From Eubacteriales bacterium (lineage in GTDB: Bacteria; Bacillota; Clostridia; Oscillospirales; CAG-272): DNA of 64,000 nt. Both the position numbers and the translations under genes were made by a program. How positions within the stretch are numbered: the stretch's first letter is position 1; each line of letters opens with the position of its first letter. The notes under the pieces were generated by a model, which ran no database searches, was not told the origin of the DNA, and worked only from the letters and a program-made list of their open reading frames with translations. This document shows, one piece after another, positions 13,522 through 26,077 of this stretch. The stretch covers positions 2,209 through 66,208 of the forward strand of contig JAZQXP010000067.1 in NCBI GenBank assembly GCA_045632925.1, in the 5' to 3' direction.

Positions 13522-13597
13522 GGGAGCATAGCTCAGCTGGGAGAGCATCTGCCTTACAAGCAGAGGGTCATAGGTTCGAGCCCTATTGTTCCCACCA
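13522..13597 (+). tRNA. tRNA-Val (UAC)
   Basis: Cloverleaf folded by hand. Anticodon loop CUUACAA. Encoded CCA. Confidence 0.9.
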
Positions 13598-13601
13598 TGA
13601 T

Positions 13602-13678
13602 GGCCCGGTAGCTCAGTTGGTTAGAGCGCCAGCCTGTCACGCTGGAGGTCGTGGGTTCGAGCCCCATCCGGGTCGCCA
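13602..13678 (+). tRNA. tRNA-Asp (GUC)
   Basis: Cloverleaf. Anticodon loop CUGUCAC. Encoded CCA. Confidence 0.9.
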
Positions 13679-13704
13679 TCATAAATACAGCGCCCTTGCT
13701 GTAT

Positions 13705-13780
13705 GCCTCTGTAGCTCAGTTGGTAGAGCAGGGGACTGAAAATCCCCGTGTCGTTGGTTCAATTCCGACCGGAGGCACCA
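13705..13780 (+). tRNA. tRNA-Phe (GAA)
   Basis: Cloverleaf. Anticodon loop CUGAAAA. Encoded CCA. Confidence 0.9.
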
Positions 13781-13783
13781 CCT

Positions 13784-13859
13784 GCGGATTTAGCTCATTT
13801 GGTAGAGCGCAACCTTGCCAAGGTTGAGGTGGCGGGTTCGATCCCCGTAATCCGCTCCA
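13784..13859 (+). tRNA. tRNA-Gly (GCC), copy 1
   Basis: Cloverleaf. Anticodon loop UUGCCAA. Encoded CCA. Identical to 15827-15902. Confidence 0.9.
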
Positions 13860-13896
13860 AAAACACGGGTACGTTATAACGTACCCGTTATTATTA

Positions 13897-13970
13897 GGCG
13901 CCATGGCCAAGCGGTAAGGCAAAGGTCTGCAACACCTCTATCCCCGGTCCGATTCCGGGTGGCGCCCCCA
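13897..13970 (+). tRNA. tRNA-Cys (GCA)
   Basis: Cloverleaf. Anticodon loop CUGCAAC. Encoded CCA. A hairpin (13866-13889) separates it from tRNA-Gly. Confidence 0.85.
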
Positions 13971-14006
13971 AAAAATTCCGAAAGCTTTTGCTTTCGGAAT
14001 TTTTTA
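13971..14006 (+). terminator. intrinsic terminator after the tRNA cluster
   Basis: ATTCCGAAAGC-TTTT-GCTTTCGGAAT followed by TTTTT. Confidence 0.8.
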
Positions 14007-14241
14007 TCCAAGCCGACGAAGGAGGCTTGGTATGTAATCAATGCGCTTGCGCATTGTATGTAATTGCGACGGAGTCGCGTATGGCATCACGCGCAAGCAT
14101 GCATATTCGTCGGCTTGATAACATACATTCCTTCGGAATGATTCCATGCAGCCCTTACGGGCTGAGGACATACCGCCTGCGGCGGATTTCATCCACGGCT
14201 ACGCCGTGATTTTGATGCGAAGGACGCGAAAGGAGAACGAA

Positions 14242-14595
14242 ATGGCAAAAAATCTTTTACTTGAATATTCCGAAGCGCTTGCTACAAAGTGTGAGTTGCT
14301 CTGTAAATCCATGAACAGCAATTCCAACACCGTTTTTCAGCTTCGCAAATCCTCGTCAAGCGTGTTCGCAAATATCACTGAGGCGCAGTATCCTCAAAGC
14401 CTTGCCGATATGCTCTCTAAATTCAAGATTGCAAGAAAAGAGTGCACGGAAACAGAGTCTTGGCTCAAATTGCTTTATAATACAAAGGTGATCGACGAAG
14501 CGACCTTCAAAACCTATCGCAACCTCTGTGGCAGAATACAGAGAATGCTCACCTCATCGTGTATCACGATTGAAAAGAAAATTGATAAAAAATAA
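14242..14595 (+). CDS. four-helix-bundle protein (23S rRNA IVS protein / Avd family)
   Basis: 117 aa and all-helical. Family-typical SSSSVFANITEA and ARKECTETESWLKLL segments. AAAGGAGA RBS. Confidence 0.7.
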   Translation: MAKNLLLEYSEALATKCELLCKSMNSNSNTVFQLRKSSSSVFANITEAQYPQSLADMLSKFKIARKECTETESWLKLLYNTKVIDEATFKTYRNLCGRIQRMLTSSCITIEKKIDKK

Positions 14596-14923
14596 TTTTC
14601 AAAAACTTATCTGGACTTATTACTTCCTTTCGGTATAATGGTGTTTACCAAAGACCGAAAGGAAGTTTTTATATGGAATACGAACTCAAACACTATTACC
14701 GAGTAAAATACGCGCTCGTCTGCGCGCGGCAAAGCTTTCTCAAAGAACCGCCGAAGGACGATTTCGAGGAATATGCCAAAAGGTGATCGGTCGCGCATAT
14801 TTCCTCGTTCTTAATAAAATTGATGAACTCAATGGCACGAATGAAAGGCTATTGAAATATTATAAAGAGAATATTGAAAAATACCCTAAAGTGTGATATA
14901 ATACTTTAGAAAGGAGTGATAAT

Positions 14924-15427
14924 ATGGCTATTTGGTATGAAGTTGAACATTCAAAAAAAGGTATTCATAATTTTATGGAGTGCAATTGGCACTTTCATGA
15001 TTTCACGATTGAGCGTGTTAATTATCTATCCGATAGTCACACGGCGGAACTTTTCTTAAAGTATGATGAGTTAGAAGATAGCATTATTCTCCGTTTCATT
15101 GGTGTACACTCCATGAATATAAACATTCAAGTTGATATGGGATATATAAGCGATATTATGGGCAGTGTATTGCTTTTGCTTAAAAATGGACATTTTCTGT
15201 GGATTGACGATGACCAATGGGGAGATCAAAGCATTGACCATATTGATGAACTCAAAAGGGAATCCTCTTGGATACAAGCTGAGCGATTAATTTGGGCAAC
15301 AACTGACAGTAACGGTGATCCTACAGAACTTCCTACACATAAAATAGATCAGACATGGAACGTTTATGGAAAAATTGAACATCACCACTTTGATCTAACA
15401 CCGCTTGACGAAGCTAAATATTTATAG
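14924..15427 (+). CDS. hypothetical protein (167 aa), AT-rich, immunity-protein-like guess
   Basis: Own promoter TTGAAA-17-TATAAT (14874-14902) and AAGGAG RBS. No recognisable motifs. Confidence 0.5.
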   Translation: MAIWYEVEHSKKGIHNFMECNWHFHDFTIERVNYLSDSHTAELFLKYDELEDSIILRFIGVHSMNINIQVDMGYISDIMGSVLLLLKNGHFLWIDDDQWGDQSIDHIDELKRESSWIQAERLIWATTDSNGDPTELPTHKIDQTWNVYGKIEHHHFDLTPLDEAKYL

Positions 15428-15785
15428 GCATCTTTTTTGGAGGCGCCACTCCTTCATCGGATCGGGCTCGGCGTTTCAATCGAAATCGGGCGCACTTCTC
15501 TTCACTTTCTCATCCGATAATATCGGGAATCTCAATGTAGCCGAATCCGGTCCGCATTCGCCTCTCGGAGATCGACAATCTCGCTTGCCAGGCGGAGAGC
15601 GAGCGAATATTCGCGCGACGCGCGAAATTCCGGGAATTTGGCTAAACTATTGCAAACTGCCCCAAAGTGTGTAATAATAACCTCAGGAAGGCGGAAAAAA
15701 ATTAAAACCTTCTTCTCTTATTTGTATTTTTCATCATTATTTCTTGTTGCTCTTGCACAGCTACACACGAATTTTTCTTTTCCTC

Positions 15786-15814
15786 TTGACTTTTCTTCCC
15801 TTTTATGCTATAAT
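15786..15814 (+). promoter_or_regulatory. promoter TTGACT-17-TATAAT for the second tRNA-Gly
   Basis: Hexamers at 15786-15791 and 15809-15814. Confidence 0.75.
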
Positions 15815-15826
15815 ATTAATGTTAAT

Positions 15827-15902
15827 GCGGATTTAGCTCATTTGGTAGAGCGCAACCTTGCCAAGGTTGAGGTGGCGGGTTCGATCCCCGTAATCCGCTC
15901 CA
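15827..15902 (+). tRNA. tRNA-Gly (GCC), copy 2
   Basis: 76/76 identical to 13784-13859. Confidence 0.9.
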
Positions 15903-15903
15903 G

Positions 15904-15939
15904 AAAAAAGCACATCTGCAACGCAGATGTGCTTTTTTT
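15904..15939 (+). terminator. intrinsic terminator
   Basis: AAAAAAGCACATCTGC-AACG-CAGATGTGCTTTTTTT. Confidence 0.85.
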
Positions 15940-15943
15940 CAGC

Positions 15944-16115
15944 TAAATCCGTCCTTGCGGACGGGGTAAATCCCACTATCGTGGGATGAAATCACTTCGT
16001 GATGAAATCCGACTTTGTCGGGAAAAAAGGACGGATTTAATTTCATCTGAGGCGGAACGCCCAAGATTTCATCCGAGCCGTGCGAGGATTTCATCGCGCC
16101 TCTCGCGATTTCATT
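15944..16115. repeat. array of GATTTCATC motifs interleaved with short hairpins
   Basis: Two inverted copies (GATGAAATC at 15985, 16001) then four direct copies (16039, 16065, 16087, 16107), spaced 16-26 nt apart. Small GC hairpins lie between them. Confidence 0.7.
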
Positions 16116-16127
16116 TTCCAAAGCATC

Positions 16128-16156
16128 TTGCAATCCGCCACAAAGTATGCTATAAT
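16128..16156 (+). promoter_or_regulatory. promoter TTGCAA-17-TATAAT
   Basis: Hexamers at 16128-16133 and 16151-16156, 26 nt upstream of ATG 16182. Confidence 0.6.
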
Positions 16157-16181
16157 AAACCCAAGAAAGGCGGTATTCACA

Positions 16182-17270
16182 ATGAGCAATTTCGGAATAA
16201 ACGTATTCGATTTCGGCGCGAAGGGCGACGGTATTACCGACGACACCGCGGCGATCCAATCTGCCATCAACTATGCCTCCGAAAGAGGAGGCGGGCGTAT
16301 TCTCTTCCCTTACACCAAGGGCGGTTACCGTCTAGCATCTCCCGGAATAGAAGAGTATAACGGGCGTAAGGTCCGCGCACAGCTTGTAATCCCTCCCGAA
16401 AACGACGCTAATATTTTCCTCGAGGGAGAAATGCCCTGCAAGATGCTGTATTCCTATCAAGTGCGTCCGCTCAGCGCAACAGAGCATAATTTCACTCCTA
16501 CGACCTTCGGAAGTCAATCGGTAAACAATACCCGTCTGTTTTCGGATTGGGAGGCTCCCGAGATACACGATCCCACGGAACGCCCGTGGTCGATCATATC
16601 CGCTCCCGAGGGCGACAGCTGCAAGGGACGTTTCAGCCTCTCGCACTTTTCGATGGCAAATCTCGAATTCCGTGTCAGAATGGACACGAACAAAATGTAC
16701 CCCACCCAAAGTGCCGCGAACCTGCAGAATATTTCCCGCGTGTGGATCAGCGATTGCCAATTTTGCCTCAACGAAAGCGTCGGCGATACGCTCAAGGAAA
16801 AGGAATTGCAGGAGAATCCCTGCCACACGGTCGGACTTATGACCTCGGGCGATCAGAACGACAACAACGTTCTCCGCAACGTCGCCACTCAGGGCTTCAA
16901 GTACGGCTTTGTACTCGGCGAGCACGTGGTAGCCGATTATCTATATATTCACAACTGCGAAAACGGAATCGCATTCCACGATTGCTCCCACCTCTCCGTC
17001 ATCAATCACATAGTGGCGCAGCACAACCGCCGCATCGTCACCACCGCGCCCGATATGCTCTTCGGACACGCAAAAGGTCCCTGCAACGTCATTATCCAAA
17101 GTCTGAATTTCGAGTGCGGTACGGGGCTGAAGCCTGAAATATCTCAGCTCGAATACGGTGTTTACGATCCCGACTGCCGCCTACGCGGAAGCCTTTGCTG
17201 GCATAAGCCCTGGGGCAAGAAGGAATTTCCCGCGGTTTGCGGAGATAGATTCGCAATATCGAAATTTTAA
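16182..17270 (+). CDS. right-handed beta-helix protein (pectate-lyase-3 / GH55-like superfamily)
   Basis: N-terminal FGAKGDGITDDTAAIQSAINYA signature. No signal peptide. Start chosen by RBS GAAAGG. Confidence 0.7.
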   Translation: MSNFGINVFDFGAKGDGITDDTAAIQSAINYASERGGGRILFPYTKGGYRLASPGIEEYNGRKVRAQLVIPPENDANIFLEGEMPCKMLYSYQVRPLSATEHNFTPTTFGSQSVNNTRLFSDWEAPEIHDPTERPWSIISAPEGDSCKGRFSLSHFSMANLEFRVRMDTNKMYPTQSAANLQNISRVWISDCQFCLNESVGDTLKEKELQENPCHTVGLMTSGDQNDNNVLRNVATQGFKYGFVLGEHVVADYLYIHNCENGIAFHDCSHLSVINHIVAQHNRRIVTTAPDMLFGHAKGPCNVIIQSLNFECGTGLKPEISQLEYGVYDPDCRLRGSLCWHKPWGKKEFPAVCGDRFAISKF

Positions 17271-17305
17271 CCCGACAATAACCTTTGACCACGGAGGGAT
17301 TTACC

Positions 17306-18439
17306 ATGGAAAATCCGTCAGCAAGTTATCCTATAGCAAATCCGAGAAGCAAGCTGAAATATCACTACCGCCCCGAAAAGGGTTGGGTGAACGACCCGAA
17401 CGGTCTCGTTTACTTTGACGGATACTACCACGTTTTCTATCAGCACGCACCCGATTTTGAGATCCCCTGGATGCAGCCGATGCATTGGGGACACGCGCGC
17501 ACGAAGGATTTCCTTAATTGGGAGGAGCTTCCGATCGCGCTTAAGCCCGATAAGGATTACGATTCGGGCGGATGCTGGTCGGGCACCGCAATCGTGAAGG
17601 ACGGTGTACTCTACCTCTTTTACGCCTCGATCCGCACACCCGAGGACTCGAAGAAAAAGATCCAGACCGTCAGCGTGGCTTATTCCACAGACGGAATCAA
17701 TTTTGAAAAATACACGGGCAATCCCGTGATCGACCGCTATCCCGCGGACGGAGGCCCCGATTTCCGCGATCCCGCGGTATGCTTGATCGACGGCCGCTAT
17801 TACTGCGTTATGGCTTCGGGAAATCCCGAAACGAAGACGGGACGTCTCCTTCTCTACCGAAGCGACGATCTTCTCGCGTGGGATTACGTCGGCATTATGT
17901 CGGAATGGGCGAACTGCAAATACGCCGAATGCCCGTCATTTATGGCGGCAGGAGACAGATTTCTGCTCGCAGCATCGGTCTGCCCGCTCGACAAAATCCA
18001 TTATTTTTCCGTGATGTACGGAAAATTCGAAAACGACAGATTCACAGTCGAGCACACCGCCGAGGTTGACAAAGGCCCCGATCAATACGCGGGGCAGGTC
18101 TTCACCGATCATCTCGGCAGAAATCTGCTTATCTCGTGGATACCCGGCTGGAAATACCGAGGATACGCCGAGCGTGACGTCGGTTGTATGTCGGTGCCGC
18201 GCGAGATCAAGCTCGATGGCGGCAAGATCACCGCTTATCCGATAAAGGAACTGCAACATCTGCTCAAGGACGAAGATCCTTCGGTAAAGCGCACCGAAAG
18301 CGGCTTCATCATCGAGCGTAAGGGGCGCGATCCCGTAGTTTATGAAGGCAAGATCGACGACCTCAAGATCCTCCGCGACGAATATATCGTTGAAGTCTTC
18401 GTCAACGGCGGCGAAGAGGTCTATACCGCTCTGCTTTAA
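17306..18439 (+). CDS. glycoside hydrolase family 32 (beta-fructofuranosidase/sucrose-6-P hydrolase-like)
   Basis: WVNDPNG, FRDP and ECP motifs. GGAGGG RBS before ATG 17306. Confidence 0.88.
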   Translation: MENPSASYPIANPRSKLKYHYRPEKGWVNDPNGLVYFDGYYHVFYQHAPDFEIPWMQPMHWGHARTKDFLNWEELPIALKPDKDYDSGGCWSGTAIVKDGVLYLFYASIRTPEDSKKKIQTVSVAYSTDGINFEKYTGNPVIDRYPADGGPDFRDPAVCLIDGRYYCVMASGNPETKTGRLLLYRSDDLLAWDYVGIMSEWANCKYAECPSFMAAGDRFLLAASVCPLDKIHYFSVMYGKFENDRFTVEHTAEVDKGPDQYAGQVFTDHLGRNLLISWIPGWKYRGYAERDVGCMSVPREIKLDGGKITAYPIKELQHLLKDEDPSVKRTESGFIIERKGRDPVVYEGKIDDLKILRDEYIVEVFVNGGEEVYTALL

Positions 18440-18449
18440 GGAGGAAATT

Positions 18450-19520
18450 ATGATACAGCTTACAGAAAGAGAAAGAATTCTCCGCACCTACCGCCGACAG
18501 GAGATCGACCGTATTCCGATGATCGACAGCGCGTGGAGGGGCACTATAAACCGTTGGAAGCGCGAGGGTATGCCGACAAACGTGTCTTGGGAGGATTATT
18601 TCGGCTTTGACCGTGTTATTCGCATCTGCCCCGATAATTCCCCGAGATTTGAAAGAAAGATCCTTGAGGAAAACGAGCGTTACAGGATTGAAACAACCGC
18701 TTGGGGCGGTACGCAGAAGGTGTTCAACATTCTTGATTCGACACCGGAGGTATTGGAATTCTATTATAACACGCCCGATAAATGGGAAGAAGCCAAGGCG
18801 GCTATGTATACCGATTACGAGGACAGAATCCCGTGGAAATATCTTGAGACGAACTATCCAAAGTGGAAAGCAGAAGGACGCTTTCTGCAGCTTGTTATCT
18901 GGTTCGGCTTTGACGTAGCGCACACACGTCTGACGGGCACGGAAAATATGCTCATTTCAATGTACGAGGATCCCGATTGGGTCGAGGATATTTTTGATAC
19001 CTATCTCAACACCTCGCTTGATCTCTGTCAGCGCATTCTCGACGCGGGATACGAGTTCGACGGTATCTTCTGGTATGACGATATGGGATATAAGGGTTCT
19101 CCCTTCTTTTCTCCCGCTGCATACCGTGAGCTCTTGAAGCCCTACCACAAAAAGGCTGTAGATTGGGCTCACGAGCGCGGAATGGTCACCGAGATGCATT
19201 CCTGCGGATACATCGAGCCGCTCCTGCCCGATATTCTCGAAACGGGTGTCGAGATGCTCAATCCTCTCGAGGTCAAGGCGGGAATGGATCCCTTCAAGCT
19301 GAAAAATCTTTACGGCGACCGACTCGCATTCCACGGCGGCATCAACGCACAGCTTTGGGATGACATTGATCTTGTAAAAGCGGAAATGGAGCGCATCATT
19401 CCCGCTATGAAGGAGGGCGGCGGCTATATTTTCGCATCCGACCACTCGATCCCCAATTCGGTCTCCTTTGAAAATATGAAAGAGATCGCAAGACTCGCCC
19501 ACGAGCTTGGAAGATATTGA
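18450..19520 (+). CDS. uroporphyrinogen decarboxylase (URO-D) family protein
   Basis: Family-typical ERILRT..IDRIP, MHSCG, LNPLEVKAGMD and ASDHSIP segments. AAGGAGG RBS. Confidence 0.8.
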   Translation: MIQLTERERILRTYRRQEIDRIPMIDSAWRGTINRWKREGMPTNVSWEDYFGFDRVIRICPDNSPRFERKILEENERYRIETTAWGGTQKVFNILDSTPEVLEFYYNTPDKWEEAKAAMYTDYEDRIPWKYLETNYPKWKAEGRFLQLVIWFGFDVAHTRLTGTENMLISMYEDPDWVEDIFDTYLNTSLDLCQRILDAGYEFDGIFWYDDMGYKGSPFFSPAAYRELLKPYHKKAVDWAHERGMVTEMHSCGYIEPLLPDILETGVEMLNPLEVKAGMDPFKLKNLYGDRLAFHGGINAQLWDDIDLVKAEMERIIPAMKEGGGYIFASDHSIPNSVSFENMKEIARLAHELGRY

Positions 19521-19526
19521 TAGAAT

Positions 19527-19562
19527 AAGGGAAGACAATCATTCGTCTTCCCTTTTCTTTTA
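19527..19562. terminator. bidirectional intrinsic terminator
   Basis: GGGAAGAC-AATCATTC-GTCTTCCC plus a T-tract, between convergent operons. Confidence 0.75.
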
Positions 19563-20321
19563 TTTTGCCACCTTCAGCGCGGCTTTTTTACTTTCTCCGA
19601 TCGCGTGGTAGGGCAAAAGCTCGTGCTTGAGTCCTCGGTCGGTACAATATTTATTGATCCTTTCAAGCTCATCGCCGTCGTTGTAATCGGGAATGACGGG
19701 CGTGCGGATGATGATATCCTTTCCCATCCCGATAAGCTTTTCGAGATTCTCAAGTATCAGCGAGTTATCCGCTCCCGTGCCCTTTTTGTGAAGCTCGGGA
19801 TCGAGAGCCTTGACGTCGTAGAGAAAACACGAGGCATACGGCAATATCTTCTCGAAATTGCTCCAAGGCAGATTACCCGCTGTATCTATGGCAACGGAAA
19901 TACCGCTCACGGCGCATTTTTCGGCAATTTCTGCAAGGAAATCGGGATAGAGCATACATTCTCCGCCCGAAAAAGTCACTCCGCCGCCCGTAGCGCGGTA
20001 GTAGTCGATATCGGCGGAAACGACCTTGTAAAGCTCGTCCGCGGTGTATCTGCGACCGTAAAGCTTTCTCGCTTCCGCGGGGCAATTCTCTACGCATTCT
20101 CCGCAAATAGCACAGGAATCAGGGGTTGGACATACTTCTTTGCAAACGCCGCAACCGATGCATTTTTCGCTCATAAGCGCAAGCTCGGGCTCGGGCGACT
20201 TGCCCTCGGGATTGTGACACCACTTGCAATCGAGGTTGCAGCCCTTGAAAAATACCGCAGTCCGTATTCCCGGTCCGTCCACCGTCGAGGCGCGCTTTAT
20301 ATCAAAAATATAGGGTATCAT
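19560..20321 (-). CDS. glycyl-radical enzyme activating protein (radical SAM)
   Basis: CNLDCKWC cluster plus CIGCGVCKEVC and CAICGECVENC ferredoxin-like clusters. ATGA overlap with the upstream gene fixes the start at 20321. Confidence 0.9.
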   Translation of the reverse strand: MIPYIFDIKRASTVDGPGIRTAVFFKGCNLDCKWCHNPEGKSPEPELALMSEKCIGCGVCKEVCPTPDSCAICGECVENCPAEARKLYGRRYTADELYKVVSADIDYYRATGGGVTFSGGECMLYPDFLAEIAEKCAVSGISVAIDTAGNLPWSNFEKILPYASCFLYDVKALDPELHKKGTGADNSLILENLEKLIGMGKDIIIRTPVIPDYNDGDELERINKYCTDRGLKHELLPYHAIGESKKAALKVAK

Positions 20322-21253
20322 GCGTTTGTTAGGATCGTCATTTCCTCGTCGCTGAGGACAAGCTCGGCACCCGCGCAGTTGGCTCTGAAATGCTTGGGAT
20401 TCGAGGAAGAAAAGAGCGGTACCACTCTCGGAAATCCCTTCATGCGGTAGAGATTGCACATCCAGGCAACTGCAAGCGCGCTGTTAGTGATGCCCTTTTC
20501 CTTTGCCATATTTGCAAGCACGTCAAAGCGTGCGCCGCCAACGTAATTTTCGGGCAGACGGGAGATATCCTCGTATGCGCCGCGGATCAGACTCGAGTAC
20601 GCCACAAGCGGAATATCCTTGTTTTCAAGATATCGCAGACGCTCTCTGCCGACGTTTTCGTTGAAAATATAGTTCGGCTTGATGTCGTGACGGCAATGGA
20701 GATAGGAAAATCTCTGCTGCATAACGGTGTAGGGCGCACAACCATTATCCTTTGCAAGCTGATTGAACTCGGCAAAACGCCAGGTGTCGTAATTGCTTCC
20801 GCCGAGAACGCGAACCTTGCCCTTTTTTATCAGCGAATAGAACGCCTCAAGCGTCTCCTCCATCGGCGTATCGGGATCGTCCGTATGAGCGTAATAGAGG
20901 TCGATATAGTCGGTTCCGAGCTTGCGAAGACTCTCGTCGCACCAATATTCGATCTGCTCCCGCTTCAGACCCGCGCCTTCGCCGTGGCGGTCAAAGCCGA
21001 CCTTTGTGGCGATCACGACCTTATCGCGGCATCCGCGGTCGCGAAGCCATTCGCCGAGAAGCGTTTCGCTTTCGTCACCCGTGCCCGCCCAATGAGCGTA
21101 GTTATTCGAAGTGTCGATGAAATTGCCTCCCATCTCGAGATAGGCATCGAGAATGGCGTAAGCATCCTCCTTCGAAACGGTCGTGCCGAACATCATCGCG
21201 CCGAGACAGATCTCGGAAACCGAAAGCCCGTTATTCAACTTAACATTCTTCAT
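20318..21253 (-). CDS. aldo/keto reductase
   Basis: GAMMFG, FIDTSNNY and VIATKVG motifs. 12-nt gap to the GRE gene. Confidence 0.88.
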   Translation of the reverse strand: MKNVKLNNGLSVSEICLGAMMFGTTVSKEDAYAILDAYLEMGGNFIDTSNNYAHWAGTGDESETLLGEWLRDRGCRDKVVIATKVGFDRHGEGAGLKREQIEYWCDESLRKLGTDYIDLYYAHTDDPDTPMEETLEAFYSLIKKGKVRVLGGSNYDTWRFAEFNQLAKDNGCAPYTVMQQRFSYLHCRHDIKPNYIFNENVGRERLRYLENKDIPLVAYSSLIRGAYEDISRLPENYVGGARFDVLANMAKEKGITNSALAVAWMCNLYRMKGFPRVVPLFSSSNPKHFRANCAGAELVLSDEEMTILTNA

Positions 21254-21265
21254 AGGTACACCTCA

Positions 21266-23488
21266 TTATTTCATTCTTTCGATAATATCATCCTGAAGCG
21301 GCTTTGTGATGTCCACGAAAACACCGCTGTAGCCCGTGATACGCACGCGGAGATCCTTGTGCCTATGCGGATTTACCTGCGCGTCAAGGAGATCCTCGAG
21401 CCCGACGGAGGTCACCTGCGCGTGAAGCCCGCCGCGATTCAGATAGACCGCAAGCAGAGCCGCAAAAAGCACGTGTCCGCTCTCGCCCTCAAATTGCTTC
21501 GGATCAATATCGAGATTCAACGCGCCCGAAAGGAAGCCGTCGCTCGGGATATTCAGCATCGAATTGAACATCGCGGTCATTCCGTTCGTGCAGGAGCCGT
21601 TTGCGGGGCGCGAATTCTGCGAAAAGGGCGTTCCCGCGAGACGTCCGTCGGGAGTCGCGCCGTAGGCAATTCCGTATTTCAGATGCCAGGTATCGCTTTG
21701 GATGCAGGGAACGATCAAAAATCCGTCCGAAGCGAGATATTTTACCGCATATTTCCGCGAAATCCAAGCCATTCCCTCCGCCAAACGCCGCACGTGAGAG
21801 TTTGAAAAAGCATCGTCGCTTCCATACTTCGGAGCTCTGCGGCATCGGGCAAGAATTTTCTCATAACCCTCGAAATTCGCATCAAGAGCATTGAGAAGCT
21901 CACCAAGTGTCAGCACTTTATCGCGGAAGACGAGCGCATCCGTCACGGTAAAGCAATCCGCGACCGTTCCGAACATCTGGAAATTCATTATCGCAAACAA
22001 ATACTCGGCGCAGGCGGTGAAGCACTCTCCGCGCTCGATCGGACGCTCGGTGAAGCAATCGGTAAAAGAGCATACCGCATACGGCTTTCGGCGGCGTATT
22101 CGAAGCTCACGCACACCGCGATCGGTCTTGTTCGAGATAAATTCCTCCATATATGCGAAATATTTATCATAAACCGTGTCGATGGTCGCGTTGCCGTCAT
22201 CGCAAAGGGAGCGCAGAATCTTTATAAACACGTCCTGCCATCCGCGCTCGGGGATGCGGGTAAAGGAATGAAGAAGAGCATCCTTCTCTTCCTTTGATTC
22301 AAATGCGCCGTAATGCTTCGACGAGGGCGAGCCGTTGATCCAGAAGCTGTGCGATCCCGGGGACGGCCAGTTGCAGCCGAAATGATGGTAATTCACAAAA
22401 GCCTCATCGGGAAGACCGAGACTGCGGTACGTGCTTTTGATATCCGCGTCGTTATAGAACATCAGCGAGGAGGACTTAAGTGCCTTTCCCGTCAGCGTAT
22501 GCCAGAGATCGGGATAAGCTTTGTCCATTCCCGGAGCATAATAGAAAACTACGACGGGATTCTTGAATTCGGGGCGGATACACTCGGCAAAGAGGTAAGT
22601 CAGCTCATTTACCGTGTAATTTCCGCCTATATCGGTGCCGCCGAGCAGAAGATACTGCGGCGCATCGAAATTGAATATCCGCGCAAAGGTCGTGGAATTC
22701 GTCTCGTCGCCGACCTGATGCTCTCCGCGGCCCATATTGAGATTGTGCTTGCAATAGTAATCGGTTATCAGCTCAGCCGCTTCATCGCGCGTGAGTCTGC
22801 CGCTTTCAATATCGGCTTTGTAGAAGGGATATAGGATCTTATCGAGTCTGCCGACGGTCAGCGTCGGATTCGGGCTGACGTAGGAGCAATCGATCAGCGT
22901 AATGATCCAACAGAGCTGCAGAGCCGTTCTGAAATCCGACGGCTTTTCAAGCGCGGCTTTCCTCAGAGTTGACGATAATTCCGTCATCCCTCTCTTCTCC
23001 GCCGCCTCTGCGTAACGCAAAATATAGCGCGTTATCGCTTCATAGACCTCGATTATTGAGGCGAGAAATCTCCTTCTGCCTTCATCCTGCTTGCTCTCGA
23101 GAGAGGAGCGGGCTTTACCTATCAATCCCGCAATTCCGTGTTCAACGACCATTTCCCAATCATACGAGCAATGCCCCGAGCTGAAGATACAGCTCTTGTA
23201 TGGCGACCTCTTGTCGCGGCATATCTCGCGGAATTTTTCCTCTTCTTCATCTGTCAGTAATCTTTGCACAGACCGACCCGCGATAAGATCGTAATCCTCG
23301 AGGGGAACGCTCACACGGTCGAGGATCGCGGTGAGAGCCCGCGCAAAACGTACAGGCTGGGACAGATCCGCGTCAAGATCCATAAGATCGTGCGCTATCA
23401 GTATTCTCTCGGCATCTGCGGCAAGCATAGGCTTTTCGGTCAGAGCCGCATCTGCTTCATCAATATTTCGCAATACTCGCTCGGTCAC
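21266..23488 (-). CDS. glycyl radical enzyme, PFL2/dehydratase-like family, substrate unknown
   Basis: C-terminal RVRITGYSGVF glycyl loop. SGHCSYDW, ALQLCW and GRLDKILYPFY motifs. Cys loop FGCNWPS. GGAGGA RBS plus GTG start. Confidence 0.9.
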   Translation of the reverse strand: MTERVLRNIDEADAALTEKPMLAADAERILIAHDLMDLDADLSQPVRFARALTAILDRVSVPLEDYDLIAGRSVQRLLTDEEEEKFREICRDKRSPYKSCIFSSGHCSYDWEMVVEHGIAGLIGKARSSLESKQDEGRRRFLASIIEVYEAITRYILRYAEAAEKRGMTELSSTLRKAALEKPSDFRTALQLCWIITLIDCSYVSPNPTLTVGRLDKILYPFYKADIESGRLTRDEAAELITDYYCKHNLNMGRGEHQVGDETNSTTFARIFNFDAPQYLLLGGTDIGGNYTVNELTYLFAECIRPEFKNPVVVFYYAPGMDKAYPDLWHTLTGKALKSSSLMFYNDADIKSTYRSLGLPDEAFVNYHHFGCNWPSPGSHSFWINGSPSSKHYGAFESKEEKDALLHSFTRIPERGWQDVFIKILRSLCDDGNATIDTVYDKYFAYMEEFISNKTDRGVRELRIRRRKPYAVCSFTDCFTERPIERGECFTACAEYLFAIMNFQMFGTVADCFTVTDALVFRDKVLTLGELLNALDANFEGYEKILARCRRAPKYGSDDAFSNSHVRRLAEGMAWISRKYAVKYLASDGFLIVPCIQSDTWHLKYGIAYGATPDGRLAGTPFSQNSRPANGSCTNGMTAMFNSMLNIPSDGFLSGALNLDIDPKQFEGESGHVLFAALLAVYLNRGGLHAQVTSVGLEDLLDAQVNPHRHKDLRVRITGYSGVFVDITKPLQDDIIERMK

Positions 23489-23517
23489 GGCGATCCTCCA
23501 AATCGTTATTTTACTTA

Positions 23518-23546
23518 ATTATAGCAAAAATCGCGCGGATTGGCAA
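23518..23546 (-). promoter_or_regulatory. promoter TTGCCA-17-TATAAT for the GRE operon
   Basis: Reverse-strand hexamers at 23541-23546 and 23518-23523. Confidence 0.6.
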
Positions 23547-23590
23547 TATATTTCCGAAAAAATTACGCGATCGGCAGGCAAAAATCGGGA

Positions 23591-23619
23591 TTGACTTGGA
23601 TAGGCTTTTATGCTATAAT
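23591..23619 (+). promoter_or_regulatory. promoter TTGACT-17-TATAAT for the MBL hydrolase gene
   Basis: Hexamers at 23591-23596 and 23614-23619. Confidence 0.65.
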
Positions 23620-23704
23620 GAAATCGGAACAATTCCGGCTCCAATATCTCCACCGCCGAAGCAAGGATATATCGGACGGTCCATACTCGAAAGGAACTAT
23701 CAAA

Positions 23705-24550
23705 ATGAAGCTTAAATATTACGGAACGGGCGCGGGCTACGGACTTCCCGAGGTATTTTGCAACTGCCGCATATGCCGTAACGCAAGAGAAAACGGCGGT
23801 AAGGATATCAGAACGCGCTCGATGGCTCTGCTTGACGGCAGACTTGCAATCGACCTCTCTGTTGACACCTTCCATCATTGCGCCTTTGCGGGGCTTGATA
23901 TGACCAAGGTGCGACACGTCATCGTCACGCATAACCACCACGACCACTTCTTCACCACCGATCTTTTCAGCCGCGTGAAAGGTATGGGAGGTCCCGTGTA
24001 TTTCTATATCAGCGAGGGCTCGGGAGCAGCCGTCCGCGCAACCGTTGATAAGCACAAGGCTGATTTCGCATCGGGCAAACGCGATCCCGAGGCGTGGACG
24101 CGCGCGGAGGTACATACCATCGAGTATTTCAAGCCCATCAAAATTCTCGATTACACAATAACTCCCCTCCCCGCACTCCACAAAAGCGCACCCGATCCGA
24201 TGATCTTCGTAATAGAGTCGGAGGGAAAGAGTATCCTATGGGCGCACGACACGGGCAAATTCCTTCCCGATACCGTAGAGTGGATCAAGAATTCGGGCAT
24301 TATCTTCGATTTTGTCTCGATGGATTGCACACTCCGCCGCGGCACGCAGATCACGCAGTCGCATATGGACCTCGATTGGTGCATAGAGATGGCAGACCTC
24401 CTCCGCTCGAACGGAAATGCCGATGATAACACCAAATTCGCCCTCAGCCACATCGGCCACCTCGTCGACCGCACCCACGACGAGCTCACCGCAGAAGCCG
24501 CAGAGGTCGGAATGATCGTGGCGTACGATGGAATGGAGATTGAGGTATAA
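23705..24550 (+). CDS. MBL-fold metallo-hydrolase (PhnP-like, N-terminal CxCxxC)
   Basis: FCNCRIC and THNHHDH motifs. Paralog of 32679-33488. Start at ATG 23705 (MKLKYYGTG). Confidence 0.8.
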   Translation: MKLKYYGTGAGYGLPEVFCNCRICRNARENGGKDIRTRSMALLDGRLAIDLSVDTFHHCAFAGLDMTKVRHVIVTHNHHDHFFTTDLFSRVKGMGGPVYFYISEGSGAAVRATVDKHKADFASGKRDPEAWTRAEVHTIEYFKPIKILDYTITPLPALHKSAPDPMIFVIESEGKSILWAHDTGKFLPDTVEWIKNSGIIFDFVSMDCTLRRGTQITQSHMDLDWCIEMADLLRSNGNADDNTKFALSHIGHLVDRTHDELTAEAAEVGMIVAYDGMEIEV

Positions 24551-24553
24551 GTT

Positions 24554-24910
24554 ATGAAAAAATCATCAAAGGAAGAAATGCATAATCTGAAAGTTTTGCT
24601 TTTTTTAGCCACGCTGATAATAAATGTAAATATGATATTGTTGGCATCATTTCATCCTAATACGCTGAAATCGGCGCTTTCGTTTGCCGGAGGAGTAATC
24701 TTATTAACCATAATAATTTGCGCGGATAAAAGAAAAACGCATGTAACACGCGGGTATGTTTTAACCATAAGTGCCATATATCTCGTATTTTCCGCAGTAC
24801 CCTTTATTCTTTCACGGGATTTTGGGTTTCTTGGGATCTGGGCAGCGGAAATATTGATTTACACTTTGGTTTGTATTCTTTTATTGAAGAAAAAGAAAGG
24901 TGAAAAATAA
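24554..24910 (+). CDS. hypothetical membrane protein (about 4 TM), AT-rich
   Basis: ORF with hydrophobic segments. Starts 3 nt after the MBL stop. Confidence 0.5.
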   Translation: MKKSSKEEMHNLKVLLFLATLIINVNMILLASFHPNTLKSALSFAGGVILLTIIICADKRKTHVTRGYVLTISAIYLVFSAVPFILSRDFGFLGIWAAEILIYTLVCILLLKKKKGEK

Positions 24911-24916
24911 ATCAAT

Positions 24917-25405
24917 ATGGACTTTTACTGGTTGAATATTCTCCTTTCTTTCTTTGGAGTATGCCTATACGGTTCTTTCAGAATCGGCGTTCATTCGTAT
25001 TTGAGGTATAAGAAAAAAAGCAAAACCTTTATCAAGAAAAGCACAAAAGGCTTTCTGAATTACTGGCTTTACCGCAATCTGAAGCAAGAACTTGGTTTTG
25101 CATATTACATGAATCAAATCTTGCTTTTCGGAAGCTTGGGATATACTCTTCTCTCTGTTTCTCTCGCTTGGAACGATGTTTTGCATCTGCCGATAGCTAT
25201 CATATACGCAATCTTCTGCATCATCCAATGTGTAGGAGAAACCTTTGCGGGCATCTACCACAACCTTGAACAATACGGAAATCCTTTCGTTATTTGGAGC
25301 AAAAGCAAATGGAACGGTCGGAAACACAGTTCGCTTCAGGACATTATTGTCATCATTGGCTTGATCGCTCTTGCGATTTTTAATATTTGGTTGGCTGTTG
25401 AGTAA
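24917..25405 (+). CDS. hypothetical membrane protein (about 4 TM), AT-rich
   Basis: ORF with hydrophobic segments. Confidence 0.5.
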   Translation: MDFYWLNILLSFFGVCLYGSFRIGVHSYLRYKKKSKTFIKKSTKGFLNYWLYRNLKQELGFAYYMNQILLFGSLGYTLLSVSLAWNDVLHLPIAIIYAIFCIIQCVGETFAGIYHNLEQYGNPFVIWSKSKWNGRKHSSLQDIIVIIGLIALAIFNIWLAVE

Positions 25406-25508
25406 TATCCCGTATTCAACCAACACTTGACACAAATTCTCATTTTCCGATTTCAAATTAACAAAGAAAAATGATATAATATACTCATATAAAACACGGA
25501 GGAATATT

Positions 25509-25886
25509 ATGGCTTCATTTTCAGACATATTCAAAACTTTACGCAAGGACAAGCAGTTAACACAGGAGCAGGCTGCCGAAATTTTCGGAGTTTCTCCGCA
25601 AGCTATCAGCCGTTGGGAAAATGCCTCATCTTGTCCCGATATTACATTGCTTCCCGCAATAGCATCTTATTTTGAAACAACCGTTGACGAGCTGTTGGGT
25701 TTAAAAAAAACTGTTAAAAAACAAAAAGTTCTGTATTTCCAGTTCTGTTATCAGGAAAGTGCAAATAAGATAAACAAATATCTCGAGGATGGGTGGACAA
25801 TTAAAGAAATGCATACGCACGAACTCGGAAAAGGTCTGCATCCCGAGGGCGTTATAATTCTTGAAAAGACGGTATTCAACACCTAA
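25509..25886 (+). CDS. XRE-family HTH transcriptional regulator with small C-terminal domain
   Basis: LTQEQAAEIFGVSPQAISRWEN HTH. GGAGGA RBS. Confidence 0.8.
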   Translation: MASFSDIFKTLRKDKQLTQEQAAEIFGVSPQAISRWENASSCPDITLLPAIASYFETTVDELLGLKKTVKKQKVLYFQFCYQESANKINKYLEDGWTIKEMHTHELGKGLHPEGVIILEKTVFNT

Positions 25887-25935
25887 TAATAACGAGAAAT
25901 ATGTTTCATTATTGATTAAATTATATTACGAGCCT

Positions 25936-26077
25936 GTAGGGAGCGACGTCCTCGGCGGTCCGAGCCCAATTAAAAATATAGCTGTGTGTTATATCAAGAA
26001 AATAGCGTTCGGTTTTCTGAATATAATCAACGCGATAATTTCGTACTGTCCGGACCGCCGAGGACGTCGGTCCCTAC
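25936..26077. repeat. 27-bp inverted repeat (one mismatch) around an 88-nt AT-rich spacer
   Basis: GTAGGGAGCGACGTCCTCGGCGGTCCG at 25936-25962 vs CGGACCGCCGAGGACGTCGGTCCCTAC at 26051-26077. Confidence 0.85.

Follow-up and report, generated by a model that had tools for sequence, protein, structure and literature searches.

Glycyl radical enzymes (GREs) make possible reactions that would otherwise be hard to achieve anaerobically, and several of those in the gut act directly on the host by way of trimethylamine (TMA), H2S, p-cresol, and skatole. A Cys-x-Glu (CXE) motif is retained in the 1,2-eliminases (glycerol dehydratase, abbreviated GD or GDH; propanediol dehydratase, PD; HpfG, HypD, HpyG, HpzG, CutC, IseG/IslA, and HpsG) and in the three isomerases HplG, YbiW, and PflD; its Glu is hydrogen bonded to a substrate hydroxyl in all of these enzymes and is catalytically essential in CutC and IslA (PMC13450708). 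The corresponding loop residues of the decarboxylase HPAD are C503/E505, a Cys-Cys pair occurs only in PFL and TdcE, and entire GRE clades are without experimental validation (PMC13450708). Here, we describe a GRE system in a 64-kb window, which is the whole stretch of DNA analyzed (64,000 nucleotides of contig JAZQXP010000067.1 from the Eubacteriales bacterium assembly GCA_045632925.1, which represents an uncultured member of the Clostridia from the gut). Judged by its gene order and sequence, the locus is a transcription unit, running from a GRE gene through an aldo/keto reductase (AKR) gene to an activase gene, of a widespread GRE clade to which no function has been assigned. Very probably, it specifies an active GRE system of a clade that lacks the CXE glutamate and that has the AKR as an obligate partner.

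An open reading frame (ORF) check of the window placed the three genes, all on the minus strand, at the positions first proposed in a preliminary description of this DNA. The GRE gene (21266..23488) encodes a 740-residue protein with the full signature set claimed for it (SGHCSYDW, ALQLCWIITL, TVGRLDKILYPFY, NYHHFGCNWPSPG, and RVRITGYSGVFVDI), including the putative thiyl Cys C372 in the loop HFGCNW, from which we name the GCNW clade, and the putative radical Gly G719 in the segment RITGYSG. The AKR gene (20318..21253), whose 311-residue product has a predicted catalytic tetrad D47/Y52/K84/H123, begins after a 12-nt spacer with GAGG inside, and its stop overlaps the start of the activase gene (19560..20321) as ATGA; both junctions read as they had been described. 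The 253-residue activase is a predicted radical SAM enzyme with a CX3CX2C motif (C28/C32/C35, in CNLDCKWC) and two ferredoxin-like Cys motifs, as claimed, when read from its ATG. The longest ORF for this protein would reach an upstream GTG at 20459, and we set the start at the ATG because that codon yields the ATGA overlap and agrees with homolog N-termini.

Scored against curated profiles, the domain assignments of all three proteins are far beyond chance. The GRE matched PF02901 (PFL-like, 195 bits, cut-off 24.3) and PF01228 (Gly_radical, 51.8 bits, cut-off 22.2); the AKR matched PF00248 (Aldo_ket_red, 200 bits); and the activase matched Radical_SAM plus 4Fe-4S domains in Pfam and, in NCBIfam, the GRE-activating protein model TIGR02494 (278 bits, cut-off 174). 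An AlphaFold model of the GRE (pLDDT 86.6, pTM 0.90) had the 10-stranded beta/alpha barrel of GREs, and Foldseek searches with this model returned more than 40 GRE chains at TM scores of 0.71-0.80, the best being GDH (1r8w; TM 0.80, E 2e-32). The query also fits the glycyl-radical-domain fingerprint RVxG[FWY]x6-8[FL]x4Qx2[IV]x2R (PMC13450708), with the successive elements R-I-T-G-Y, SGVFVD, I, TKPL, Q, DD, I, IE, and R. It departs from the fingerprint conservatively at two positions, with Ile for Val at position 2 (RITGY, compared with RVTGY in most family members) and Ile at the [FL] position.

By motif and score, the GRE is a member of the superfamily that stands outside every characterized class. 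It reached no NCBIfam cut-off, and all equivalogs scored at most 205 bits against cut-offs of at least 1000. Individual scores and cut-offs were 207/678 (TIGR01774), 205/1000 (HpsG), 175/1100 (HypD), 162/1050 (CutC), 158/1150 (NF033715), 155/1109 (PRK09983), and 50/994 (TIGR01255). A family profile searched against the Protein Data Bank (PDB) scored highest with eliminases and isomerases (GD 227, PD 222, HpzG 220, PflD 219, IslA 218, HplG 213, HpsG 213, and CutC 201 bits) and lower with HPAD (137 bits), BSS (113 bits), MasD (111 bits), and PFL (62 bits); a TutD profile match was weak (113 bits) and confined to the C-terminal third. Known GRE functions were considered for the query and its family and set aside, as the GRE and ten relatives reached no NCBIfam cut-off and the PDB matches had only ~20% identity. 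Curated models, solved structures, and the literature assigned no function to the family, and a literature search on GRE plus AKR, keto-reductase clusters, sugar alcohols, and uncharacterized gut GRE neighborhoods found neither this family nor a Glu-less eliminase described; a 2024 paper on aminoacyl radical enzymes (AAREs), which we also searched, does not mention the family (PMC11528403). The preliminary description had held that the substrate cannot be read from the sequence, and this judgment stands after the model, structure, and literature searches. The family is not categorically new, because its fold, cofactor logic, and activase are classical.

The cysteine loop and putative active-site residues

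Because single-sequence phmmer alignments were weak around the Cys loop (residues 360-380), the profile searched against PDB sequences was built from a 35-sequence family alignment. It aligned the family segment fGCnWps onto iGCvePq of GD (C433/E435), and the same GCvE register was obtained with PD (C438), PflD (8id0), and HpzG (8iof). As GCNW aligns on GCvE, C372 is in register with the thiyl Cys, Asn373 is at the x position, and Trp374 is at the position of the Glu (GDH E435). These alignments to solved structures bear out the earlier proposal that the loop is Cys-Asn-Trp with the CXE Glu replaced. The preliminary description had also allowed that the true thiyl Cys might lie elsewhere, in a canonical GCVE-type loop, and with C372 in register this objection falls away. 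In the AlphaFold model, strands 368-370 and 374-376 form a beta-hairpin with C372 at its tip, as expected for the finger loop.

The C-N-W loop, which the query shares with all 81 full-length family members, differs from the loops that define the known classes. It lacks the CXE of the 1,2-eliminases and isomerases, the two adjacent cysteines of the formate lyases (PFL, TdcE), and the Glu at Cys+2 of the decarboxylases (HPAD, IAD, PAD). Among the clustered flanks of the family, no small Cys-rich ORF like that for the HPAD Fe-S small subunit conservedly adjoined the GRE gene, and genes for X-succinate synthase beta/gamma Fe-S accessory subunits were absent at the window locus and not conserved in the flanks. 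Because the Glu-hydroxyl hydrogen bond is universal in the eliminases and isomerases and CXE is invariably absent here, the substrate or the proton is presumably handled differently in this family. A second catalytic Cys of the kind used by PFL or RNR (ribonucleotide reductase) was also considered; C107 and C595 were attractive candidates when 35 sequences were aligned, yet both are substituted in members of the family, and this variability makes a PFL-like second Cys unlikely.

Further positions could be mapped onto GDH through the family profile. H106, in the segment SGHCS, aligns to GVGHVS of the first barrel strand and thus to the acid His164; T209 corresponds to S282, P277 to Y339, and Q597 to Y640, and the counterpart of D447 is position 385, which is variable in the family. 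The segment GRGEHQ (residues 253-258) represents a family-specific 5-residue insertion relative to GDH. The GRE is also ~50 aa shorter than its nearest characterized relatives, in agreement with the earlier remark on its size, and ~55 residues deleted after the N-terminal helices account for its short length. By sequence criteria, the GRE, AKR, and activase are all competent, with the Cys, the Gly, and the acid His in place and the Glu base absent.

Family, gene neighborhood, and wider radiation

The preliminary description had called the operon an orphan, a term that no longer fits. The GRE has homologs in at least 120 clusters at 90% identity (at least 55% identity, ~740 aa), whose members are unnamed or carry the labels "hypothetical protein" (given by PGAP) or "formate C-acetyltransferase" (given by IMG). 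The GRE of the window is also present in NCBI, on a contig of 93 kb. When GTDB species genomes were scanned, 80 loci were found, all in metagenome-assembled genomes (MAGs) from the guts of goats, cattle, sheep, deer, buffalo, rabbits, chickens, and humans. Most were from Clostridia (Oscillospiraceae, Acutalibacteraceae, Christensenella-like organisms, and Ca. Neoclostridium), with a few from Lentisphaerae and Verrucomicrobia, and the GCNW family reaches down to 43% identity across three phyla.

Conservation of the loop among homologs had been left for comparison, and G-C-N-W proved invariant in each of the 81 full-length proteins. In four loci (L038, L054, L060, and L074) only the residues preceding GCNW differ. 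Other invariant positions are G105-H106, NPTL, G-E-H-Q (255-258), D599-T600, and the Gly loop RxTGY[ST]G; altogether, G719, C372, N373, W374, H106, and ~130 further positions are invariant across the aligned family. C372 is the sole invariant Cys (C107 and C595 are the other frequent ones), the family alignment contains no conserved C-x-E motif at any position, and the Cys and Gly loops are the best-conserved segments. Judging from this pattern, the family is under strong purifying selection at the Cys, Gly, and finger-loop sites, and the invariance of GCNW argues that selection, and not decay, accounts for the missing Glu.

We examined the gene neighborhoods of 83 loci by tblastn and by an unbiased clustering of their 2117 flanking ORFs. 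The AKR gene lies directly downstream of the GRE gene on the same strand in 72 of the 83 loci, typically after a gap of 3-35 nt, and most exceptions are at contig ends. The AKR tetrad D47/Y52/K84/H123 is invariant in 73/73 partner AKRs, and in distant members the AKR is conserved more (60-70% identity) than the GRE (45-57%). An activase gene follows the AKR gene in 48 loci, and the CX3CX2C motif is invariant in 49/49 activases. Directly upstream of the GRE gene on the same strand, 29 loci encode a ~320-aa membrane protein that matches EamA at the Pfam cut-off, and 28 loci have a divergent AraC-family regulator; on contigs with Pfam labels, the AraC gene points away from an array of EamA, GRE, AKR, and, in some cases, activase genes. 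The statement in the preliminary description that no regulator or transporter gene accompanies the operon is thus right for the window and wrong for these homologous loci.

Attempts to deduce the substrate from gene context gave no candidate that held. Genes for glycoside hydrolases (GHs) are frequent neighbors in the family (GH95, GH51, GH172, GH5, GH39, and GH32), and the GH32, URO-D-like, and FAD-oxidoreductase genes that appeared to be conserved reflect synteny among close relatives only. The AKR reached no NCBIfam equivalog (best 84 bits against a cut-off of 415), its best PDB match was DepB (112 bits), and its closest solved relatives (DepB, AKR6D1, and aryl-alcohol dehydrogenase-like proteins) are too distant to indicate a substrate.

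Some loci of the family depart from this arrangement or contain additional genes. In four of them (L050, L055, L059, and L081), an activase of a different lineage, with ~35-38% identity to the window activase, is encoded upstream of the GRE, and ~35 family loci have no activase gene within 10 kb. A conserved, unannotated 100-aa ORF follows the AKR gene in L086 (11270-11572) and L087 (11239-11541), and these two loci also have a 2-keto-3-deoxygalactonate kinase-like gene (DGOK) and genes for cytoplasmic BNR_2 (sialidase-fold) proteins nearby. Relatives of L012 likewise have BNR_2 genes close to the operon (cluster c21).

To place the family among more distant proteins, we searched 1.84 billion representatives exhaustively and aligned the 150 nearest with hmmalign. 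The residue at Cys+2 changed with distance. It was Trp in 9/9 representatives of a core tier (at least 770 bits). In tier 2 (430-640 bits; 715-746 aa; GRGEHQ kept), 17 proteins had an aligned Cys, and Cys+2 was Trp in 12, His in 2, and Arg, Ala, or Asp in 1 each. Tier 3 (300-380 bits) was mostly C-N-N or C-N-D, with Glu in 3/31, and among the remaining representatives (below ~270 bits) Cys+2 was Glu in 52/74. Ten tier representatives reached no NCBIfam cut-off. CXE is likewise missing from the closest proteins outside the family (C-N-H/R/D/N), so that the oddity marks a whole radiation and not one protein. By these alignments, the window GRE falls within a broad radiation, as yet unnamed, of short GREs (P0129-P0169, ~690-790 aa, with loci L088, L091, and L092 among them) whose hallmark is Asn at Cys+1 with no Glu at Cys+2.

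The sampled contexts of this radiation are of a carbohydrate type. The locus of the tier-2 protein P0131 (L088) encodes two paralogous GREs, an AP_endonuc_2 sugar-isomerase-type TIM barrel, GH95, and an aldehyde:ferredoxin oxidoreductase (AFOR). In tier 3, P0152 and its activase are encoded with Peripla_BP_1/4 proteins, a sensor kinase, an AraC-type response regulator, and an ABC ATPase; genes for LacI, Peripla_BP, ABC ATPase, and BPD_transp_2 proteins are upstream of the GRE and activase genes of P0158; and in L091 and L092 the GRE and activase genes stand beside ribose/galactose-type ABC transporter genes and genes for LacI or AraC-type regulators. As annotated by domain, the sampled tier-3 neighbors are monosaccharide-type uptake and regulation genes.

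In a separate observation, four of the 150 nearest proteins have Thr (VRVATYS, VRVSTYS, or VRVATYT) or Ala (VRVAAYS) at the position of the radical Gly. These four (P0190, P0234, P0249, and P0241) resemble the aminoacyl radical enzymes described in 2024 (PMC11528403).

Candidate chemistry and alternatives

We lean, by a little, toward a scheme in which the GRE turns a small carbohydrate-derived substrate into a carbonyl compound that the AKR reduces, using a base other than the canonical Glu or no base at all. The C372 thiyl radical would take hydrogen from a small, neutral, carbohydrate-derived molecule (a monosaccharide, polyol, or anhydro-sugar), which in many relatives may be imported by the EamA-type permease under AraC control, and a radical elimination or ring-opening rearrangement would then give an aldehyde or ketone. 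Protonation of the leaving group probably falls to the conserved His106, which takes the place of the acid His164 of GDH. A proton acceptor in lieu of the missing Glu may be unnecessary, or this role may be filled by the substrate or water or by one of the candidates E256/H257 (in the invariant GEHQ insertion), D599, or H369; Asn373 and Trp374 may bind the substrate by hydrogen bonding and stacking. With reduction of the carbonyl by the AKR and NAD(P)H, the net reaction would be a reductive deoxygenation, and the pair would form a self-contained electron-sink module, by analogy with the conversion of glycerol to 3-hydroxypropionaldehyde (3-HPA) and then to 1,3-propanediol by GD with 1,3-propanediol dehydrogenase. 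The preliminary description had taken the co-encoded reductase to imply a carbonyl product that is reduced at once. The coupling to the AKR is borne out by its conservation in ~72/83 loci, and immediate reduction of a carbonyl product is plausible.

Several points weigh against this scheme. The AlphaFold model has low confidence in the GEHQ and Gly loops, and E256, D599, H369, and W374 are candidates that may or may not be located in the active site. The missing base could mean chemistry other than elimination, and the AKR could equally well act before the GRE. A few members (L004, L016, and L036) have no adjacent AKR gene, and in three lineages the activase gene comes straight after the GRE gene. 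In the clustered flanks, only the genes for the AKR, the activase, the EamA-type protein, and the AraC regulator occur in more than 13/83 loci. Finally, the substrate class is deduced from neighbors alone, and the host organisms are rich in glycoside hydrolases anyway.

Two other accounts of an active enzyme have to be weighed. One, a narrower version of the scheme above, is that the GRE is a canonical 1,2-diol/polyol dehydratase whose base has moved to E256 or D599 and whose aldehyde product is then reduced by the AKR. In both structure and profile, GDH is the nearest match, the counterparts of GDH H164 (H106) and S282 (T209) are kept, E256 and D599 are invariant, the reductase partner mirrors DhaB1/DhaT logic, and a two-enzyme module with no further catabolic genes would suit an electron sink. 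Nevertheless, GDH D447 is not conserved (its counterpart, position 385, varies), and microcompartment genes, which are frequent with the aldehyde-forming PD and CutC systems, are absent. Moreover, CXE is kept by every characterized eliminase, with the Glu essential in CutC and IslA (PMC13450708), and we regard such a dehydratase with a relocated base as possible but rather unlikely. The other account is a reaction type new to the superfamily, acting on a free sugar through the Cys-Asn dyad, such as an RNR-like ring deoxygenation, a C-C cleavage, or a redox-neutral rearrangement. No feature of the Glu-less radiation is better conserved than Asn at Cys+1 (C-N-W/H/R/D/N), the radiation is associated with monosaccharide-type uptake systems, and no curated family or literature covers it. 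In class I/II RNRs, an Asn near the thiyl Cys binds sugar hydroxyls. Overall similarity is nonetheless highest to eliminases and isomerases, and the carbonyl-handling partners (the AKR, and the AFOR in one relative) match what the product of an eliminase or isomerase would need, which leaves a new reaction type a tentative proposal.

Explanations that deny the enzyme its activity or its unusual loop fare far worse. The loss of a residue held to be essential in the nearest characterized relatives, together with the ~50 missing residues, might suggest a GRE homolog that has degenerated or does not catalyze a reaction, such as a pseudoenzyme, a spare carrier of the radical, or a protein with a regulatory role. 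We consider this highly improbable in view of the invariance of C372, N373, W374, H106, G719, and ~130 positions down to 43% identity and in three phyla, the cognate activase co-encoded with intact cluster ligands in 48 loci, and the concentration of conservation in the Cys and Gly loops, a pattern that would be expected of an active enzyme. An alignment artefact, with the thiyl Cys elsewhere in a GCxE-type loop, could have arisen from the weak single-sequence phmmer alignments around residues 360-380. The family profile, however, puts GCNW on the GCVE of GDH, PD, PflD, and HpzG with high posterior support, and C372 is the sole invariant Cys, at the predicted hairpin tip, in a family with no conserved C-x-E, so that such an error is scarcely credible.

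One may speculate, with more doubt than confidence, that the Cys-Asn, Glu-less GREs (the GCNW/AKR family and its C-N-H/R/D/N relatives) form a new functional class whose radical chemistry acts directly on free monosaccharides or kindred neutral sugars in gut anaerobes. If so, this class would carry out ring deoxygenation, dehydration, or C-C cleavage without a glutamate base and would constitute an unrecognized route of anaerobic carbohydrate metabolism. The GCNW clade is now defined by an invariant C-N-W loop, the GRGEHQ insertion, a fixed AKR, and, in many members, an EamA transporter and an AraC regulator; it is abundant among MAGs of ruminant, hindgut, poultry, and human gut origin and is nested in a Glu-less radiation tied to sugar uptake genes. 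The three-gene operon is a compact target, with a built-in NAD(P)H-coupled AKR readout, for testing GRE chemistry without the canonical base, and it may give entry to an unrecognized carbohydrate-derived substrate or electron-sink pathway in fiber-degrading gut Clostridia.

Surroundings of the operon and known systems

The expression signals given in the preliminary description are present in the sequence. Upstream of the GRE gene, a candidate sigma-70-type promoter (23518..23546, minus strand), recognized by its match to consensus at 11/12 positions, consists of TTGCCA (23546-23541), a 17-nt spacer, and TATAAT (23523-23518) with an extended -10 TG. A putative ribosome-binding site and the GRE start (23486..23499, minus strand), as read from the sequence, consist of GGAGGA (23499-23494), 5 nt, and the GTG at 23488. 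Beyond the activase gene, the window has a convergent operon with pectate-lyase-like, GH32, and URO-D-like genes by Pfam, and a 10-bp hairpin, found by pattern matching at 19527..19554 between the 3' ends of the activase and URO-D-like genes, is likely to be their shared terminator. On the other side of the GRE gene is a divergent gene for an MBL-fold protein.

The convergent unit (16080-19520, plus strand) comprises a pectate-lyase/rhamnogalacturonase-like gene, a GH32 fructosidase gene (17285-18439), and the URO-D/MtaA-like gene, which likely starts at MIQLTERE near 18447, 7 nt after the GH32 stop. Close relatives retain GH32 and the URO-D-like gene as a pair (clusters c10 and c25), and a URO-D-type methyltransferase-like gene is a puzzling member of a fructan operon. 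A near-consensus promoter on the plus strand (23591-23619; TTGACT, 17 nt, and TATAAT with TG) is directed away from the GRE promoter, so that two promoters stand back to back within ~75 bp, and it faces the MBL-fold, PhnP-like gene (23540-24550, plus strand), which scored 71 bits with TIGR03307, below the cut-off. Farther off, five tRNA genes (Val, Asp, Phe, Gly, and Cys) lie at 13522-13970, with a second tRNA-Gly(GCC) gene 1.9 kb on (15827-15902). Two segments of the window (14000-16000 and 24000-26000) have a GC content of ~0.42, compared with ~0.50-0.53 around them, and may be inserted DNA; the 24-26 kb segment encodes small membrane proteins and XRE-type regulators.

Among known systems, the C-O 1,2-eliminases GD/DhaB1 (1r8w) and PD (5i2a) gave the best fold and profile match to the family (227 bits). 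They share with it the barrel fold, the Cys and Gly finger loops, the His of the GHxS strand, the T209/S282 position, and an activase with ferredoxin domains, and their aldehyde product also goes to a reductase. They differ in that identity is ~21%, CXE stands where the family has C-N-W, and GDH D447 and Y640 are not kept in the family (Q597 is at the Y640 position), which also has the ~55-residue deletion and the GRGEHQ insertion. Their partner is an iron- or zinc-dependent alcohol dehydrogenase, whereas that of the family is an AKR, with no microcompartment. PflD and YbiW (8id0, 8id7, and 8yjo), which open the rings of 1,5-anhydromannitol-6-P and 1,5-anhydroglucitol-6-P, resemble the family as gut-bacterial GREs with carbohydrate substrates and a ketone that is finally reduced, and 8id0 scored 219 bits with the family profile. 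In these enzymes, however, the CXE Glu (Glu433, Glu443) deprotonates the C2-OH (PMC13450708), and their phosphorylated substrates are delivered by the phosphotransferase system (PTS) and processed with linked aldolases, whereas the family has no conserved kinase, PTS, or aldolase and has the AKR as its fixed partner.

CutC, IslA/IseG, HpsG/HpfG, HypD, HpyG/HpzG, and HplG belong to the same PFL2-like branch (~190-220 bits, 20-21% identity) but have CXE and substrate anchors, such as the Arg/Gln/Arg sulfonate triad of the C-S lyases, and the family scored 155-205 bits with equivalogs of this group against cut-offs of 1000-1150. PFL and TdcE share the superfamily fold and the glycyl radical domain, and IMG's automated name "formate C-acetyltransferase" points to them; they have a Cys-Cys pair where the family has a single Cys followed by Asn, and the automated name is almost certainly wrong. 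The systems most like the family are the unnamed, Glu-less GREs of tiers 2 and 3, which are also short (~690-790 aa), have Asn at Cys+1 and no CXE Glu, and occur in carbohydrate-type contexts, with GRGEHQ shared by tier 2. They differ in the residue at Cys+2 and in their partners, with AFOR, GH95, and a second, paralogous GRE found in tier 2, whereas tier 3 has CUT2-type ABC transporters; among the sampled contexts of the Glu-less radiation, a fixed AKR is found only in the core family.

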